IMG/VR virus record: IMGVR_UViG_3300002029_000005
DNA: 64,000 nucleotides
DNA from: a virus
Strand: one strand, 5' to 3'
Shown here: positions 19,148-48,840 of the stretch, in pieces
Position numbering within the stretch: position 1 is the first letter of the stretch
Layout: every line of letters starts with the position of its first letter
Position numbers and translations under genes: made by a program
Notes under the pieces: generated by a model
The model's database searches: none
What the model was told of the DNA's origin: nothing
What the model saw: the letters and a program-made list of their open reading frames with translations, nothing else

Positions 19148-19530
19148 AACATTTCCATCAATTTATCGTTTATATCTATAACAACGCGCTCTGAGACATT
19201 GAACGGGTAACGGATATGTTCGTTTTTCAAGACCGCAACTTCCATTAACAATTTCGCATGAGCAATAACTAGCGATTCGTATCCGTCATATAATCGGTTG
19301 TAGTCCGCATTTACTTGCTTTTCACGCGCCACCACTGCGAGCAGCATTTTCTCAAATCCCTGTATTCTGTTTCGCCCCTTTTCTGGAGAATCATTTGCAG
19401 CTCGGCTGTTATTTCTTGTGGCGTTTCGCACGTTGCCACTATGAATCTGGCTTGGCACATCAGACGGTCTCGATACTGCGCTTCGGGATACGTTAGATTC
19501 ATGCTGCATTGGCCTTCCTACCCCGCGCAT
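19144..19530 (-). CDS. Hypothetical protein
   Basis: Fills the gap between helicase and HTH gene; true start probably at the internal Met near 19506. Confidence 0.45.
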   Translation of the reverse strand: MRGVGRPMQHESNVSRSAVSRPSDVPSQIHSGNVRNATRNNSRAANDSPEKGRNRIQGFEKMLLAVVAREKQVNADYNRLYDGYESLVIAHAKLLMEVAVLKNEHIRYPFNVSERVVIDINDKLMEML

Positions 19531-25163: not shown

Positions 25164-25799
25164 GTGATGGAAGGCGTGAAAATCAGAATAAAGCAAGCGC
25201 GCAAAGCGTCTGAGCTAACGCAGCAGCAAATCGCGGATGCAATGTCATTGTCACGTCAACTTGTTTCGTTTTGGGAAAATCCAGCGCGACCAGAATTCCC
25301 ATCACTTGAACAGCTTCACATCATTGCAGCCAAATGTAGTACATCTGTAGTATGGTTAATAGTAGGTTCAGTTGAGTACACTGGTGATAACGAAACCAAT
25401 AGGAACGATGTTCCGTTATTGAACTGGAGTCACGCCGGACACGATAAACTGCCTATTTTTGACAATCACTTGGATGTTGTAAAGTTGCCTTGCCCTGCAC
25501 CACACAGTGAACACACGTACGCATTGACGGTTAACGGCAGGTCAATGGCTTCAACTAACCCCCTTGAAAAATCGTTTCCTGACGGCGTGGTTATCTACTG
25601 CGACCCATCCAGGGTGCAAGACGCCGCGAACGGCTCTTACGTGATTGCATACCTACCTTCAACACAAGAAATGATCTTTAAGCGTTATGGCAAGGACGGA
25701 GCAAATACGTGGCTTGAGTCAATAAATTCTGAATATCCAAAGATAACTGAGCCATTCGAAATACGAGCGCTAGTAATTGGAGCGTTTCAGAGCGTTTGA
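25164..25799 (+). CDS. cI: CI-like repressor (XRE HTH plus S24 peptidase)
   Basis: IKQARKASELTQQQIA...VSFWE HTH; YALTVNGRSM (Ser) and IFKRY (Lys) S24 motifs. Confidence 0.9.
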   Translation: MMEGVKIRIKQARKASELTQQQIADAMSLSRQLVSFWENPARPEFPSLEQLHIIAAKCSTSVVWLIVGSVEYTGDNETNRNDVPLLNWSHAGHDKLPIFDNHLDVVKLPCPAPHSEHTYALTVNGRSMASTNPLEKSFPDGVVIYCDPSRVQDAANGSYVIAYLPSTQEMIFKRYGKDGANTWLESINSEYPKITEPFEIRALVIGAFQSV

Positions 25800-33427: not shown

Positions 33428-33631
33428 ATGAGTGATGAAACAAAAAACGATGACGACCTATTGAAATCCAAAGAGGTCGCTGATTTATGGAGAATAAAAG
33501 TCACCACCTTGCGCAATTGGGTATGTGACCCAAACCACACAGCGCCGAAAGGTTTTAAGATTGGCAATAGCCGTGTGTGGCGGCGAAAAGTGGTTAACGA
33601 CTATGTTTCAGAAATGGAATCCGCTGCGTGA
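33428..33631 (+). CDS. xis: AlpA/excisionase-like HTH protein
   Basis: LLKSKEVADLWRIKVTTLRNWV...PKGFKIGNSRVWRR; adjacent to the integrase. Confidence 0.8.
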   Translation: MSDETKNDDDLLKSKEVADLWRIKVTTLRNWVCDPNHTAPKGFKIGNSRVWRRKVVNDYVSEMESAA

Positions 33632-34797
33632 AGTCGCATTGCGTCAACCTGATCGGACCACCATTGCATCAGCTCGATACGTTGGCTCATGTATTCGCCG
33701 CGATTGTATGCCGCTCGGATGGTGTTCTTGTCAAGGTGCGCCAATTGAATCTCAATCACATCAGCTCTAAACAAATCAGATTCGTTTGCCATGGTGCTAA
33801 AACTGGAACGGAAGCCATGAGGCGTATGTCGATAACCCTGATACCCAAGATACTTAAGGGCGTTATTCAGTGCATTTTCGCTTATGACTGGACTTTTGCC
33901 CGTCATGGATGGGAATAGGTGTTCACCGTGGCCGCTATAGTCGCGAAGATTTTCAAGTATGGATACAGTCGAATCAGTCAAAGGTATGTAGTGATCACGC
34001 GGTTTTTTCATTCTCGCCTTATCGATATGCCACATGCGCCCTTCAATATCTATCTCAGCCCACAACGAGCCTCTGAATTCACTGGAGCGCAAGAACACGT
34101 AAGGCAACAAGCGCAAAGCCAGGCCAATGATGATATTACGATCAAATCCCTGAATTTTTCGCAACAAAACGCCGAACTCTGCCGGGTCCACAATTGCAGC
34201 GTACTGCACCGGCTTGGATTTTTTCAACGCGCCCTTCAGATCACGGCAAGGGTCGCTCGGTATATGCCCAACCGCTACCGCATAGCGCATGATTTGACTG
34301 GTTACCGTAAGCAGTCTATGCGCTGTCTCAATGCTGCCTCGCGACTCTACAACCCGCAATACATGAAGAACATCAGGCGGAGTGATCTTGGTTACTTCAA
34401 GCTCACCAATAACCGGCGTAAGGTCTTTAAGTATGCGCAGCTTAACTGTGCGTCTGTGGCTATCGCTCCATTGCTGAATAGCCAACCATTCGTCGGCAAT
34501 CGCTTTGAACGAAAGGTCATTGCCAACGTGTTTTTTAACCTGCTTCGCGTGGCTCGGATCAACACCCCGATCAAGTTGTTCTTTTGCAGCAAACAAACCG
34601 ATTCGAGCCTGCTTTAATGAAACGCCAGGGTAGACCCCCAGTGACAGAGTGCGCCGTTTTTTTGCATACCGATAGTCATAGCGCCAGTATTTGCCGGAAG
34701 GTAGTACATGCAGGTACAGACCATTGCCGTCGCGCAGCTTTGCGGCCTTGCCATCGTATTGGATTTTTCGCAATTGAGAATCAAGTAGTTTTGACAT
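33601..34797 (-). CDS. int: Tyrosine integrase, P4-like (Arm-DNA-binding domain plus catalytic domain)
   Basis: LRDGNGLYLHV...GKYWRYDY; FLRSSE (R), MKK (K), HGFRSSF (HxxR), LAH, AYNR (Y). Confidence 0.95.
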   Translation of the reverse strand: MSKLLDSQLRKIQYDGKAAKLRDGNGLYLHVLPSGKYWRYDYRYAKKRRTLSLGVYPGVSLKQARIGLFAAKEQLDRGVDPSHAKQVKKHVGNDLSFKAIADEWLAIQQWSDSHRRTVKLRILKDLTPVIGELEVTKITPPDVLHVLRVVESRGSIETAHRLLTVTSQIMRYAVAVGHIPSDPCRDLKGALKKSKPVQYAAIVDPAEFGVLLRKIQGFDRNIIIGLALRLLPYVFLRSSEFRGSLWAEIDIEGRMWHIDKARMKKPRDHYIPLTDSTVSILENLRDYSGHGEHLFPSMTGKSPVISENALNNALKYLGYQGYRHTPHGFRSSFSTMANESDLFRADVIEIQLAHLDKNTIRAAYNRGEYMSQRIELMQWWSDQVDAMRLHAADSISET

Positions 34798-35074: not shown

Positions 35075-35533
35075 ATGAATCTGGCACCATCTTGCAAGAT
35101 ACCGCTCAGCAATGGTGGCTGCGCGATTGTGGACGCCTGCGATTACGAATTTCTGAATCAATGGATTTGGCGAAAATCTTCTGAAGGCTACGCGATACGC
35201 ACCATAAAAATTGATGGAAAACAGCACGTACGCCGGATGCACCGCATTGTTGCAGATGCACCCGATACTGTTCCGGTCGATCATAAAAACCGAAATCGAC
35301 TCGACAATCGCCGTGAAAATCTGCGCCACTCCAATTCCAAGCAAAACGCCATAAATCGCAGTCCTACCAAAGGCCGAAAGTATCGAGGCGTATACAAGCG
35401 CGGTAATCGGTTTGATGCACGCATCAACGTCAATGGCAAGCTTCTGCACTTGGGTACATTTGCGACCGATACAGAAGCCGCCAAAGCGTTCGACCAGGCC
35501 GCAATAAAACATCGCGGGATGATGCCATGTTGA
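35075..35533 (+). CDS. HNH-AP2 homing endonuclease
   Basis: VDHKNRNRLDNRRENLR (HNH) plus KYRGVY...FDARI...HLGTF...AAKAFD (AP2). Confidence 0.9.
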   Translation: MNLAPSCKIPLSNGGCAIVDACDYEFLNQWIWRKSSEGYAIRTIKIDGKQHVRRMHRIVADAPDTVPVDHKNRNRLDNRRENLRHSNSKQNAINRSPTKGRKYRGVYKRGNRFDARINVNGKLLHLGTFATDTEAAKAFDQAAIKHRGMMPC

Positions 35534-37911: not shown

Positions 37912-38241
37912 CTATGCGTTAAAGCCGATGTATTCCATCAAGCTATTTCTACTCGTACCACTGGCTTCGATATCTTCACCGTGGTCCCACACAAACCGTT
38001 TGTTAATATCGATAGCAAAAAACCACGCTGGCGTATCAGTCGCCTCAGATTTTGCGGTTAGGTGGTCTTGATATCTCTGAACCTCATTACTTGCGTGTTC
38101 AACGCACGCAAGTTCAATAGCTGTTTTTATACGGTGAGCTAGAAACTGCATATCAAATTCAGAATTTTCCAAATCACGCGCAAGCGACACATGATCAACC
38201 ATGTCAGCAGCTACGCCTTGAATAATATTGTCAATCATCAA
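37912..38241 (-). CDS. Hypothetical protein
   Basis: Coupled ORF with RBS. Confidence 0.55.
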   Translation of the reverse strand: MMIDNIIQGVAADMVDHVSLARDLENSEFDMQFLAHRIKTAIELACVEHASNEVQRYQDHLTAKSEATDTPAWFFAIDINKRFVWDHGEDIEASGTSRNSLMEYIGFNA

Positions 38242-38866
38242 TGCGCTCCTTTGTGATTTCAGTTACAACAGGCTCGTTAACCGGCTGCATCCTTCGATTT
38301 ACAATACTGACATTGAAGCCACCGCCACCATCGTAAGTTGTCCAGCCATAACCTTCGTGTATATGACTGAAGCAATGCACCTTTGGTTTGACTCGCTTTA
38401 CAGCCGCTAACAACTCTTCACAACCTGCATTAACACCTTCGTCTGTTTTGTCCATACAGCCAATAGGAGGGCCATGCGTAACGAGCACATCAGTATCATC
38501 AGGAATGTTGTCCCATGCTTTCTTCATCTGCATGCCTCTTGGCTTCATCCAGTGCCAGCTATAAAACTCTGGCGTCCAAGGCGACCCATAAAACTTAACT
38601 CCATCGATTATCAATGAAGCGTCACAAAGATATTTAACTCCGTGATCGGCACACATAATTTCTGCATGATGGAATGGCTCGTCGTGATTGCCTGAAATCA
38701 GTATTTTATGCTCATGCGATTGTTCGCTCATCCATTTTATGAACTTTGGAAATTCCGCAAATGTATCTCTGCCTGTAAAGTCACCAGTGTGAATCAAAAC
38801 ATCACCATCTGGAACCTGCACAGCCATATGCATCGAATGAGTGCAGCCAAGCATTACTAGTTTCAA
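38231..38866 (-). CDS. Metallophosphoesterase (MPPED/calcineurin-like)
   Basis: GCTHS, HTGD, SGNHD, VTHGPP, FSHIHE motifs. Confidence 0.9.
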   Translation of the reverse strand: MKLVMLGCTHSMHMAVQVPDGDVLIHTGDFTGRDTFAEFPKFIKWMSEQSHEHKILISGNHDEPFHHAEIMCADHGVKYLCDASLIIDGVKFYGSPWTPEFYSWHWMKPRGMQMKKAWDNIPDDTDVLVTHGPPIGCMDKTDEGVNAGCEELLAAVKRVKPKVHCFSHIHEGYGWTTYDGGGGFNVSIVNRRMQPVNEPVVTEITKERIDD

Positions 38867-42558: not shown

Positions 42559-42993
42559 TTAAACATGCTCTGACTTTGCCGCAAGCTCTGTCAGTCGCTC
42601 ATGTGCAGCCCAGCATGCCTCAGTGCAACTGGCTTGTCTGTTAAGTTCAACTACCTCGTCAAGATCAGCGTCGCTCATTTTCGGATACCACCTTTTGAAT
42701 AATTTTCGAAGATCATCCCAAGTAGTCACGCCAAAAGGCTTTTTAGGGCTTCTGTCGCGTCTTGGCATATGAACCGGCATCAGCTCTGCCTCACGCTTCC
42801 TTTCCTCTTTGAACGCTTCTTCTCTTGTTGAATACCACTTATGAACTGACAATATAGCGCCTTTAGGTGCAACACCTGTCCACAAGTGATTGACAAGTCT
42901 CTTGTCTGGATTGTTGGTCATCCCGACATATACAACCTCACCCTTGTAAACAATATCGTAAACACACGCCCTATTTGTTTTTTTGCTTCTCAT
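42559..42993 (-). CDS. GIY-YIG nuclease-domain protein
   Basis: VYDIVYKGEVVYVGMTNNPDKRLVNH...EAFKEE. Confidence 0.75.
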   Translation of the reverse strand: MRSKKTNRACVYDIVYKGEVVYVGMTNNPDKRLVNHLWTGVAPKGAILSVHKWYSTREEAFKEERKREAELMPVHMPRRDRSPKKPFGVTTWDDLRKLFKRWYPKMSDADLDEVVELNRQASCTEACWAAHERLTELAAKSEHV

Positions 42994-43294: not shown

Positions 43295-43396
43295 TGAAAT
43301 GAGTCGAGTTAGCAACAGCTATGAAACACGAGCCGCCATATTTGCGGTGATGGCGACGGTCATCGTTCGCTGGTTTGAATCCAGCCATTTCAGCCA
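43295..43396 (+). ncRNA. Non-canonical tRNA-like RNA (102 nt)
   Basis: Perfect 7-bp acceptor TGAAATG/CATTTCA; T-arm GCTGG-TTTGAAT-CCAGC; discriminator G, encoded CCA; interior not a standard cloverleaf. Confidence 0.7.
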
Positions 43397-45942: not shown

Positions 45943-46174
45943 CCCATGATTAACACAACCTCCAGACAACGGACGAACGCATGACAGACCGAATACGAAC
46001 ACTGACAGTTATCTTAGACAAAGAAATGCGCACTGATGACGTGCAGTGCGTTGTCGATGCTATTCATATGGTTAAATATGTTAACTCGGAATTATGTAGC
46101 AGTTGCACAAGGACGTGCAGCTGCGAAAACGGAGGGTTTAGCCACTCAAGTAGTGGCTGGTGATTACCGCGTCC

Positions 46175-47615: not shown

Positions 47616-48059
47616 TTAAACTTGCTGCAAGCTGATCGAATACCTAGGCGTACCATCAGCCCTGCTAACTTCCTCAATATAGTTCTTAGCTAGAACAGAC
47701 CTAACGCCATCCTGCAACGTCGCTACAAGCTTACTGCGATCACCATCTTGAAGGTTTAACCCGCGCTTATCACACAATACATCGGCTATCTCTGGAATGC
47801 TCAGTGGTTCTGGTGATTCGCGCAGGGTGTCAACGATAGCTCTGCCACGTTCGCCAGATTCAAAGAACCGGTTTGCAGCGCGTTTACGAACTGGCTTGAT
47901 GTCCTTAACTTTATATTCGGGGTCGAATAGTAGTATGGCGCTATCGAGGGTGTGAATCTCGCCTTTAAGCTGGATCATTTGCTGGCGTAGTTGCTCTAAA
48001 TCACCACTCAACCGCGCACGCTTCTTTACTAATCCGCTTATAACGTAACTATCGCCCAA
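47616..48059 (-). CDS. Coiled-coil plus winged-helix-like hypothetical protein
   Basis: SYVISGLVKKRARLSG...LDSAILLFDP...LRESPEPLSIPEIA; GGAGA RBS before TTG. Confidence 0.65.
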   Translation of the reverse strand: MGDSYVISGLVKKRARLSGDLEQLRQQMIQLKGEIHTLDSAILLFDPEYKVKDIKPVRKRAANRFFESGERGRAIVDTLRESPEPLSIPEIADVLCDKRGLNLQDGDRSKLVATLQDGVRSVLAKNYIEEVSRADGTPRYSISLQQV

Positions 48060-48117: not shown

Positions 48118-48552
48118 TTGTGCAACTGCTACATAATTCCGCACGAATGTATATTATGGCCTTATAAACTATATGGCGGATACGGGAAAACCACCTACCA
48201 GGGTTTTGTTACTGGAGCGCATAGAATTTCTTTGGCTTTATATCAATCTATAGACCTGCCTGTTAAATCTGTTTCGTGTCTACATAAATGTCCGACTGGA
48301 TCTAATCCCGCGTGCATAAATCCACTACACCTGTCTTGGGGTGACGCCAAAGAAAATATGCAAGATATGTTGCGCGAATCGAGAAATGTTCCGCTACTTG
48401 GTGAAGCAAACCCATCATCTGTATTGTGTGAATCTGATGTAATTAGCATACGTGAAGGTAATTGTTCAGCAATTGACGCTGCATTGGAGCATGGAGTTTC
48501 TGTTGGAACCATATACCATATACGTAGACGGAAAACGTGGAAACATTTGTGA
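48118..48552 (+). CDS. HNH (His-Me finger) endonuclease
   Basis: CILW...GYG...AHRIS...CLHKC...NPACINPLHLSWGDAKENMQD plus C-terminal HTH; start uncertain. Confidence 0.85.
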   Translation: MCNCYIIPHECILWPYKLYGGYGKTTYQGFVTGAHRISLALYQSIDLPVKSVSCLHKCPTGSNPACINPLHLSWGDAKENMQDMLRESRNVPLLGEANPSSVLCESDVISIREGNCSAIDAALEHGVSVGTIYHIRRRKTWKHL

Positions 48553-48601
48553 TGGCTTCGCGTGTGCGTGTTAGAGCTGTGTTTTGTGCAGCTTAATTTA
48601 A

Positions 48602-48735
48602 GGGTTGCGCCGAATGGCTCGGTGATGCTCTCCAGTAACGGCTTGGTTGCGCTGTCTAGTTGCCAGGTATCGAGCTGGCCGGGGCAGACTCTCGCGTAGC
48701 AAATAGGATGGTTCGATTCCATCTGCGATCCACCA
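48602..48735 (+). ncRNA. Non-canonical tRNA-like RNA (134 nt) with an alanine-type acceptor
   Basis: GGGTTGC/GCGATCC acceptor with G3.U70, discriminator A, encoded CCA; T-arm GATGG-TTCGATT-CCATC; ~55-nt extra arm. Confidence 0.75.
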
Positions 48736-48740
48736 AATAC

Positions 48741-48761
48741 AAAAGGCCGCATTACGCGGCC
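48741..48761. terminator. Hairpin between convergent transcripts
   Basis: GGCCGC-ATTAC-GCGGCC preceded by AAAA (U-tract on the minus strand). Confidence 0.55.
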
Positions 48762-48840
48762 AATTGCTCCTATCAAAGTATCGCTATCATCCAGCAAGTG
48801 AAAGCCACTGCGAACGCTAAATTAAAACAGGTTCTTAAGC

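Follow-up and report, generated by a model that had tools for sequence, protein, structure and literature searches.

A putative non-decoding, alanine-type tRNA mimic encoded downstream of an HNH gene in a temperate marine phage

We have analyzed a 134-nt tRNA-like element at positions 48602-48735 (+ strand) of a 64,000-nt stretch of viral DNA (IMG/VR record IMGVR_UViG_3300002029_000005, referred to here as the window), which belongs to a temperate marine phage. The reading that we favour, at a rough probability of 0.45, is that the element is a functional phage gene for a non-decoding tRNA mimic or decoy that can be charged with alanine. This reading draws on a non-random top half (acceptor stem and T arm) with the full alanine identity set and a canonical T loop, and on the presence of a second such element in a phage that has no canonical tRNA gene in the window. 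As judged from sequence comparison, the element is about twice the usual size of its kind, is unrecognisable as a transfer-messenger RNA (tmRNA), and has a 13-bp or bulged acceptor/T branch together with a true D-like stem; its phage appears to carry a second, non-alanine mimic and no tRNA.

Structure of the tRNA-like element

The acceptor stem is formed by the 5' strand GGGTTGC (48602-48608, with G1, G2 and G3) and the 3' strand GCGAUCC, the latter opening a segment (48725-48735) that also holds A73 (48732) and an encoded CCA (48733-35). Its seven pairs are G1-C72, G2-C71, G3.U70 (U70 at 48729), U4-A69, U5.G68, G6-C67 and C7-G66. The T arm, GAUGG-UUCGAUU-CCAUC, occupies 48707-48723. All 12 helix pairs of the acceptor and T stems are intact, as are the T loop, A73 and CCA. 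The original prediction, which was made from the letters of the sequence, had singled out the first three acceptor pairs, A73, the CCA end and the T loop TTCGATT, and each was found where it had been placed. It had also read G3.U70 with A73 as an alanine identity set; this set, with CCA, is present in the sequence, so that charging with alanine is predicted. The alanyl-tRNA synthetase (AlaRS) requires only an acceptor helix with G3.U70.

To search for this arrangement we used a purpose-built scanner that combines a 5-bp T stem, the T-loop motif, 0-1 extra base, a 7-bp acceptor and NCCA. On both strands of the window it matched exactly two sites, 48602-48735 and 43295-43396, against a mean of 0.02 in 200 shuffles. 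Bare T-arm motifs occur in the window at the chance rate (6 seen, 4.2 expected). With two sites found against 0.02 expected, the top half of the element is thus real and beyond chance. Measured against a canonical tRNA, it has the 7-bp acceptor, the discriminator base and a T arm with a consensus T loop; what fails is the 12-bp coaxial 7+5 branch with its linker bases 8 and 9. An extra U, recorded by the scanner as one extra base, stands at 48724 between the T stem and the acceptor, and G48609 is the sole linker from the acceptor to the D-like stem. The extra base had been predicted to give an 8/5 or a 7/6 fold, and suitable partners do exist: U48724 can pair with G48609 (8/5 branch) or with G48706 (7/6 branch), giving a 13-bp branch, or it may be left as a bulge.

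The interior of the element is less regular. G8 and a D-like hairpin, CCGA-AUGGC-UCGG, fill 48609-48622 (hairpin 48610-22), as had been anticipated for a hairpin without a linker, only G48609 lying ahead of it. Its loop carries GG in the manner of G18/G19, as needed for a tRNA elbow with the T loop. A weakly structured linker follows (48623-48645, from the predicted fold and the enumeration of arms), which holds the putative loop CUCCAGU; the weak and mismatched arm described around this loop is indeed such, with 3 of 5 pairs formed. Next comes a bulged hairpin of 55 nt (48646-48700) in a P2-like position, closed by GUUGCGC/GCGUAGC. This is the giant arm of the original prediction, of which the closing stem and the hairpin are present in the predicted fold while the stability does not exceed that of shuffled sequence. 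It stops 6 nt before the T arm, from which it is separated by the linker AAAUAG (48701-48706). Among all candidate arms enumerated in 48609-48707, none is an anticodon arm with a 5-bp stem, a 7-nt loop, U33 and a purine at 37, and the element would therefore be unable to decode. Overall, the bottom half of the element is unsupported.

A repeat search revealed an 8-nt direct repeat, GGTTGCGC, at 48603-10 and 48645-52 (spacing 42). Because of this repeat the closing stem of the large arm is a near copy of the acceptor stem, and alternative pairing is possible. An inner register that pairs 48645-51 with 48724-30 would have perfect 7/5 geometry but a G.U at 2:71 and a CACCA tail; on sequence grounds the outer register fits better with alanine identity and with the spacing of CCA. 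More speculatively, the duplicated GGUUGCGC strand might allow the RNA to switch between two folds.

Standard detectors do not recognise the element, in keeping with the original view that it falls into no known tRNA or tmRNA class; the ARAGORN and Rfam checks were both silent. ARAGORN found 0 tRNA or tmRNA genes in the window and nothing when introns were allowed, and with a lowered threshold or in its mitochondrial and tmRNA modes it gave only unconvincing ps80 solutions, which use another register and a 2-nt "anticodon". Rfam returned nothing relevant in the window at the gathering score. At E<=10, in searches of 2.3 kb and of 156 nt, the best matches were Plastid-ycf2, antisense on the T arm, and cyano_tmRNA at 7.6 bits, the latter being the sole clan match of the 156-nt search and lying over the T arm. 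Y RNA-like models (bacterial YrlA) gave no match either in the window at the gathering score or at E<=10. Y RNA-like mimics have a long Ro-binding stem, whereas the ends of the element form an acceptor stem with CCA. The element had been called far too short for a tmRNA and devoid of a tag reading frame, and this holds: no real tag frame exists, the only one being GCU-CUC-CAG-UAA at 48627-38. The element is non-coding, with overlapping frames that are short or antisense to the HNH gene.

The other scanner match, element no. 1 (43295-43396, + strand), has a perfect 7-bp acceptor (including U1-A72 and G2-C71), G73, CCA and the T arm GCUGG-UUUGAAU-CCAGC. Its minimum free energy (MFE) fold (z = -2.2) is a cloverleaf of class-II-like type in which the variable arm has 6 bp. 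It does include a 5-bp arm with a 7-nt loop, CAUAUUU, which places A at 33 and U at 37. G73 and a long variable arm are serine-type marks. The element lies ~90 nt past a strong TTGACA-17-TAAAGT promoter and 20 nt ahead of the first early open reading frame (ORF). About 300 nt away is a divergent GIY-YIG-like ORF (42559-42993, - strand; Pfam E 2.5e-4, below the cut-off). With an HNH gene near 48602-48735 and this ORF near element no. 1, both tRNA-like elements adjoin homing-endonuclease-type genes.

Alanine-type RNAs without an anticodon arm in phage contigs

No homologue with the same interior was found in IMG/VR, the JGI metagenomes, the GTDB genomes or INPHARED. The only other copy is on a JGI Botany Bay contig, BBAY59 (L334, 10 kb), which is the same phage, syntenic with the window and differing only at N joins; there is thus no support from covariation. 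A blastn search against the INPHARED phages returned only 20-30-nt stretches of T arm from ordinary phage tRNAs, and an exact 26-mer of the element is absent from IMG/VR. Patterns describing its architecture matched in IMG/VR only a 131-nt element on contig L119, plus a chance match on a normal tRNA-Ala in L124. A pattern of D hairpin plus T loop had 43 matches in the JGI metagenomes, all of them by chance, upstream of ordinary tRNAs. A pattern of the 3' end with its extra base found two unrelated fragments only in 185,579 GTDB species genomes. An attempt to align the element with that of L119 by MAFFT and RNAalifold left the two misaligned.

The element nevertheless falls into a broader class. 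When IMG/VR was scanned for T loops with ..TCCACCA after them, at least 120 sites were obtained, and 52 of the 120 sites listed are not called by ARAGORN. Some of these, together with sites from further IMG/VR scans, are complete small genes that are 48-137 nt long and have a 7-bp acceptor, G3.U70, A73 and CCA. These alanine-type genes lack an anticodon arm, and those of 131-137 nt occur also in complete phage genomes. The element is likewise phage-borne and ARAGORN-negative, with a T arm, the same acceptor features and no anticodon arm.

Many of these small genes are recognised by the Rfam tmRNA model (RF00023). Four score above the gathering score: L099 (655-732, - strand; 67.6 bits), L024 (175-254, -; 61 bits), L063 (8793-8854, -; 56.2 bits) and L178 (495-629, -; 51.7 bits). 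L029 (4155-4236, +; 46.2 bits), L044 (4915-4997, +; 43.5 bits), the 52-nt gene of L002 (1315-1366, +; 32 bits) and L173 (206-264, -; 21.5 bits) are significant although below gathering, and L119 (4156-4286, -; 29.2 bits, E 5e-8) is also below gathering. The genes of L099, L024, L063, L178, L029 and L044 are tmRNA genes of 62-135 nt reduced to the tRNA-like domain (TLD) and missed by ARAGORN; with these six at 43-68 bits, the "TLD-only" form represented by mycobacteriophage DS6A is frequent in uncultivated phages. Those of L173, L054 (4020-4080, -) and L002, at 52-61 nt, resemble a tRNA-Ala without its anticodon arm (acceptor, D arm, T arm and ACCA). The L054 gene scores 44 bits on the tRNA model and sits in a phage tRNA cluster that also holds a full tmRNA.

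Two of these contigs bear on the element more directly. L119 has G8, a 4-bp stem and an AUGGC loop at the same offset as in the element, and is the sole IMG/VR case for that pattern. L002, a Botany Bay contig, has in common with the window a 255-aa gene neighbouring the element (43% identity), its 52-nt alanine-type gene being elsewhere on the contig. A third comparison is offered by a family of 137-nt genes on L131 (1716-1852, -), L291 (8268-8404, +; a complete provirus) and L307 (10687-10823, -), to which a 135-nt gene on L308 (95-229, +), a complete phage with direct terminal repeats, is similar in layout. The order is acceptor, a 14-nt D-analogue, a conserved 7-bp long-range stem closing two hairpins, one of them with the loop GUUGCU, and T arm; a few compensatory changes back this layout. 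None of these four sequences has an Rfam tmRNA or tRNA match. On L131 the 137-nt element is flanked by two HNH-type genes, and the distance from the end of an upstream HNH gene to the element is 24 nt; no similarity was detected between the HNH proteins of L131 and of the window. A covariance model built from the 137-nt family had 48602-48735 as its sole match in the window (21.7 bits, rough E 0.04).

The element shares with these phage genes the alanine set, the encoded CCA, the lack of an anticodon arm and the phage context. Its length is near that of the L119, L131 and L308 genes, and L131 too has its element downstream of an HNH gene. In contrast, its interior resembles none of them in sequence, it does not score as tmRNA while most of them do (21-68 bits), and its extra-base geometry is found in none of the others examined, except in part in L002. 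We entertain, as a speculative and rather improbable extension, that the element and L119, perhaps with the 135-137-nt L131 and L308 types, represent an undescribed phage family of ~130-140-nt alanine-tRNA mimics that is distinct from tmRNA, with a true D-like stem and with a big arm replacing the anticodon arm; the element and the serine-like element no. 1 would then make up a two-mimic system in a phage without ordinary tRNAs. Possible roles for such a family are decoys for host defences that target tRNA ends, or alanine donors outside the ribosome.

Genomic setting and weighing of explanations

The temperate character of the phage is indicated by a tyrosine-type integrase (33601-34797) and a CI-like S24/HTH repressor (25164-25799); the window also encodes an Erf-type annealing protein, a helicase and tail genes. 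No relatives of the phage were found in INPHARED or IMG/VR. Upstream of the element is an HNH homing-endonuclease-like gene (48118-48552, +) that matches PHROG phrog_59 (E 8.6e-15) and five more HNH PHROGs. Its product has no Pfam match, and a word-indexed search found no homologues of the protein. The gene stops 49 nt before the element on the same strand, which agrees with the claim that the element lies directly downstream of it. The spacer contains a small predicted hairpin (48574-48594). Lying 9 nt past the CCA is the intrinsic terminator of a converging leftward operon (48745-48761, - strand; GGCCGCG-UAA-UGCGGCC plus a U run; hairpin z = -3.4). A short rightward unit, convergent with this operon, ends with the element, which has a gene stop on one side and a strong terminator hairpin on the other and is placed like a stand-alone RNA gene; this position counts for the mimic reading.

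On the minus strand (48735-48770) the terminator hairpin reads ..E-Q-L-A-A-stop, with the UAA in the hairpin loop, and so resembles the end of a tmRNA tag; since this strand is opposite to that of the element, we regard the match as a coincidence. A split tmRNA was considered and rejected: there is no partner, no tag-type frame is nearby on the + strand, and the EQLAA ending is on the wrong strand. Homologues of the neighbouring 255-aa and 147-aa genes lie in unrelated contexts, with no copy of the element there. Those of the 147-aa gene (47616-48059) are on contigs L332 and L333 (62-70% amino acid identity). A segment of ~50 nt (46083-46133) is 90% identical to L332:4433-4483 and 81% to L333:121-163, the contigs being otherwise unrelated, and may be an operator or small-RNA element travelling with the 147-aa gene. 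A homologue of the 255-aa membrane protein (36% identity) is the first gene of an integrase-bearing island, L001:9691-19292, which is inserted at a tRNA-Met gene of a bacterial contig with the 3' end of the tRNA repeated at ~19245-19292. Elsewhere in the window are a separate homing-endonuclease-like ORF with HNH_3 and AP2 domains (35075-35533, +) and, 10 kb from the element, a calcineurin-like metallophosphoesterase gene (38231-38866, -; Pfam E 3e-11), a family that occurs in 1 of the 5 other records with elements of 131-137 nt.

RNase P, the CCA end-repair enzyme, AlaRS and EF-Tu all read elements of the top half of a tRNA, and these are encoded in the sequence. If the element is a functional mimic, it would be transcribed together with the HNH gene or just after it, as the lack of a promoter-like site in the spacer suggests. 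RNase P would then cut at G48602, the 3' end would be trimmed to the encoded CCA, and host AlaRS would add alanine. The product could then compete, as a decoy, with tRNA or tmRNA for those host factors that recognise their top half. Trans-translation would be the target with the best precedent, by titration of SmpB as has been proposed for the TLD-only tmRNA of DS6A; to this specific mechanism, which is drawn by analogy, we give under half of the share assigned to the mimic reading. Alternatively, the RNA might be a sponge for host toxins aimed at tRNA acceptor ends.

Beyond the features of the element itself, the mimic reading is supported by the many ARAGORN-negative alanine mimics of 48-137 nt in phage contigs, one of them on L002 with its neighbour gene in common. 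The recurrence of the AUGGC D-like loop in L119, whose sequence is itself tmRNA-like, and the choice of this one site by the 137-nt-family model also point in this direction. Against it stand several results. The MFE of the element is no better than that of shuffled sequences (z = -0.46 for the whole, -0.54 for the giant arm), nor is the segment 48609-48645 beyond shuffled sequence (z = -0.98), and the extra base disrupts the 12-bp geometry common to tRNA and tmRNA. In the 156-nt search the Rfam models for tRNA (RF00005), tRNA-Sec (RF01852) and tmRNA gave no match at E<=10, yet RF00023 detects DS6A (34.7 bits) and the other small genes (21-68 bits). On the 137-nt-family model the acceptor and T arm account for most of the score, which an ordinary tRNA-Ala exceeds; the score thus shows class and not family. 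The promoter scan found no sigma-70-like promoter in the 49-nt spacer, the absence of homologues with the same interior must be counted here as well, and the 8-nt repeat could be the scar of a rearrangement.

Several of these points suit the main rival, that the element is a relic, an ancestral tRNA- or tmRNA-like gene rearranged by duplication or insertion beside a homing endonuclease and now non-functional, its intact top half reflecting recency rather than selection. With its two copies spaced by 42 nt, the repeat gives an inner stem that all but reproduces the acceptor stem; the interior folds like random sequence; the extra base falls at the T/acceptor junction; all Rfam covariance models fail, no promoter was found, and the element is a singleton. 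Both tRNA-like elements moreover lie beside homing-endonuclease-like genes, which promote local rearrangement. We nonetheless hold a relic to be rather unlikely, since none of the 12 helix pairs is broken and T loop, A73 and CCA are likewise intact, the D-like AUGGC hairpin recurs in L119, and a second intact top half is present in the same phage; by our estimate, a repeat of 8 nt would arise by chance in about 1 of 8 sequences of 134 nt. Nor is it a freshly split tRNA, as its 5' half is unlike that of a canonical tRNA. A less probable explanation, though one to be taken seriously, is that the element gives the HNH transcript at its 3' end a cis-acting signal for processing or stability, which RNase P or RNase Z would cut in the manner of mascRNA or of the tRNA-like ends of plant viruses, with no trans-acting RNA released. 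The position 49 nt past the HNH stop on the same strand without a promoter of its own would fit, as would that of element no. 1 in a leader that runs from a strong promoter to the first early ORF and that of the L131 element 24 nt past an HNH gene, but processing needs no G3.U70, A73 or encoded CCA, and an upstream HNH gene is not general among the other elements examined.

We attach little weight to the two remaining explanations. A chance resemblance, or an attP-type fragment from the 3' end of a host tRNA or tmRNA to which a complement happens to lie upstream, is suggested by the temperate nature of the phage, and given a real 3' fragment we estimate the chance of a 7-nt complement within 175 nt at ~8%. 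It is highly improbable, as the window holds two copies of the full motif where 0.02 would be expected, and a D-like hairpin is there too. The attP-type fragment was in fact rejected as a candidate: the element is 14 kb from the integrase, and its 3' half matches no tRNA or tmRNA gene fragment, no host gene with such a 3' end having been found among the 185,579 species genomes, where the scan of 3'-end geometry met only the two unrelated fragments. Least probable of all is a decoding tRNA, whether the Ala-at-Trp mis-decoder that the original prediction proposed for a working CCA loop or a tRNA whose anticodon loop would have 8 nt or whose variable arm would be giant. The CUCCAGU loop does have U33 and a purine at 37, and ARAGORN in its ps80 solutions proposes odd tRNAs; against this, the CCA loop sits on a stem with 3 pairs out of 5, an arm of 5 bp and 7 nt with U33/R37 is absent, ARAGORN (default and with introns) and the Rfam tRNA and tRNA-Sec models are silent, and the ps80 solutions lie in another register with a 2-nt anticodon. 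The mis-decoder accordingly finds no support.

Little has been published on phage RNAs reduced to the chargeable half of a tRNA, the record consisting of DS6A and one experiment on a similar molecule, yet they are common in viral contigs. If the element is expressed and alanylated, mimics of this kind would extend beyond recognisable tmRNA derivatives, and two different ones could be held by a temperate phage that has no true tRNA. The mimic reading, if true, would open to experiment the ways in which phages interfere with ribosome rescue, tRNA-binding enzymes or tRNA-directed host defences. If the element is instead a relic, it would record the erosion of a tRNA-type gene in the neighbourhood of homing endonucleases.

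Comparison with known tRNA-like RNAs

The layout of the element, with acceptor, D region, a predicted helix ending 6 nt before the T arm, and T arm, is that of a tmRNA TLD with P2 closed. It is also the layout of a tRNA with a long variable arm, which the TLD is said to mimic. The element differs from a tmRNA TLD in its closed D-like stem, the additional 23-nt linker and the extra base, and the conserved TLD motifs are absent. By eye, compared with the Rfam consensus, the unpaired D-loop analogue ..UGG..UCGAC and the ..AC before the T stem are missing, their positions being taken by the closed hairpin CCGA-AUGGC-UCGG and by AAAUAG. On the sequence, membership of the tmRNA family is not demonstrable.

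The closest precedent is the TLD-only (CDS-less) tmRNA of mycobacteriophage DS6A (tmID 11587; Mao et al. 2009, as cited in PMC4131195 and PMC11915505). According to the passages on it in the same two papers, a DS6A-like TLD molecule strongly inhibits tmRNA, perhaps through titration of SmpB. We located the DS6A gene at JN698994:28478-28560, where it scores 34.7 bits on RF00023 (E 7e-13, 156-nt search), whereas the element gives no score in the same set-up. Both are encoded by temperate phages that also have an HNH gene, and both have a G3.U70 acceptor, A73, a T arm and a helix (in the element a predicted one) ending a few nt before it, with neither a tag frame nor an anticodon. DS6A differs in its length (83 nt against 134 nt), its 12-bp acceptor/T branch, to which the element adds one base, and its D region, an unpaired D-loop analogue CAAUGGUGGUCGAC where the element has a closed 4-bp D-like hairpin and a 23-nt linker; CCA is encoded in the element and not in DS6A. 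The suggestion in the original prediction of a mini tmRNA-like domain or SmpB decoy thus has a published precedent in its functional part, while kinship with tmRNA finds no backing from RF00023.

Reduced tmRNAs are known also from organelles, as CDS-less plastid forms of ~65 bp and as jakobid mitochondrial forms (Jacob et al. 2004; PMC11915505, in its account of these forms). Having lost an mRNA-like region, they keep, like the element, only a tRNA-like part, but they are organellar, are recognisable tmRNA homologues and co-occur with SmpB, and no such homology is shown for the element. The tRNA-Sec and allo-tRNAs, with which the original prediction drew a parallel, have 13-bp 8/5 or 12-bp 8/4 and 9/3 branches and long variable arms (PMC5389517). 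The element may similarly have a branch other than 7/5 and has a long arm ahead of the T arm. These tRNAs, unlike the element, have a proper anticodon arm and decode, and with RF01852 silent the parallel shrinks to the extra base. A last comparison is with T4 species 1 RNA (rnaC), a stable RNA of 139 nt and unknown role encoded in the tRNA cluster beside segB (PMC3014915). Both are ~135-140 nt long, with a tRNA-type T arm near the 3' end, paired ends and a homing-endonuclease neighbour. The annotated rnaC gene, however, encodes no 7-bp G3.U70 acceptor, no A73 and no CCA, its interior is strongly structured (z = -4.6), and it has no sequence similarity to the element. By these analogies rnaC appears to be a looser analogue of the element than the TLD-only tmRNA of DS6A.

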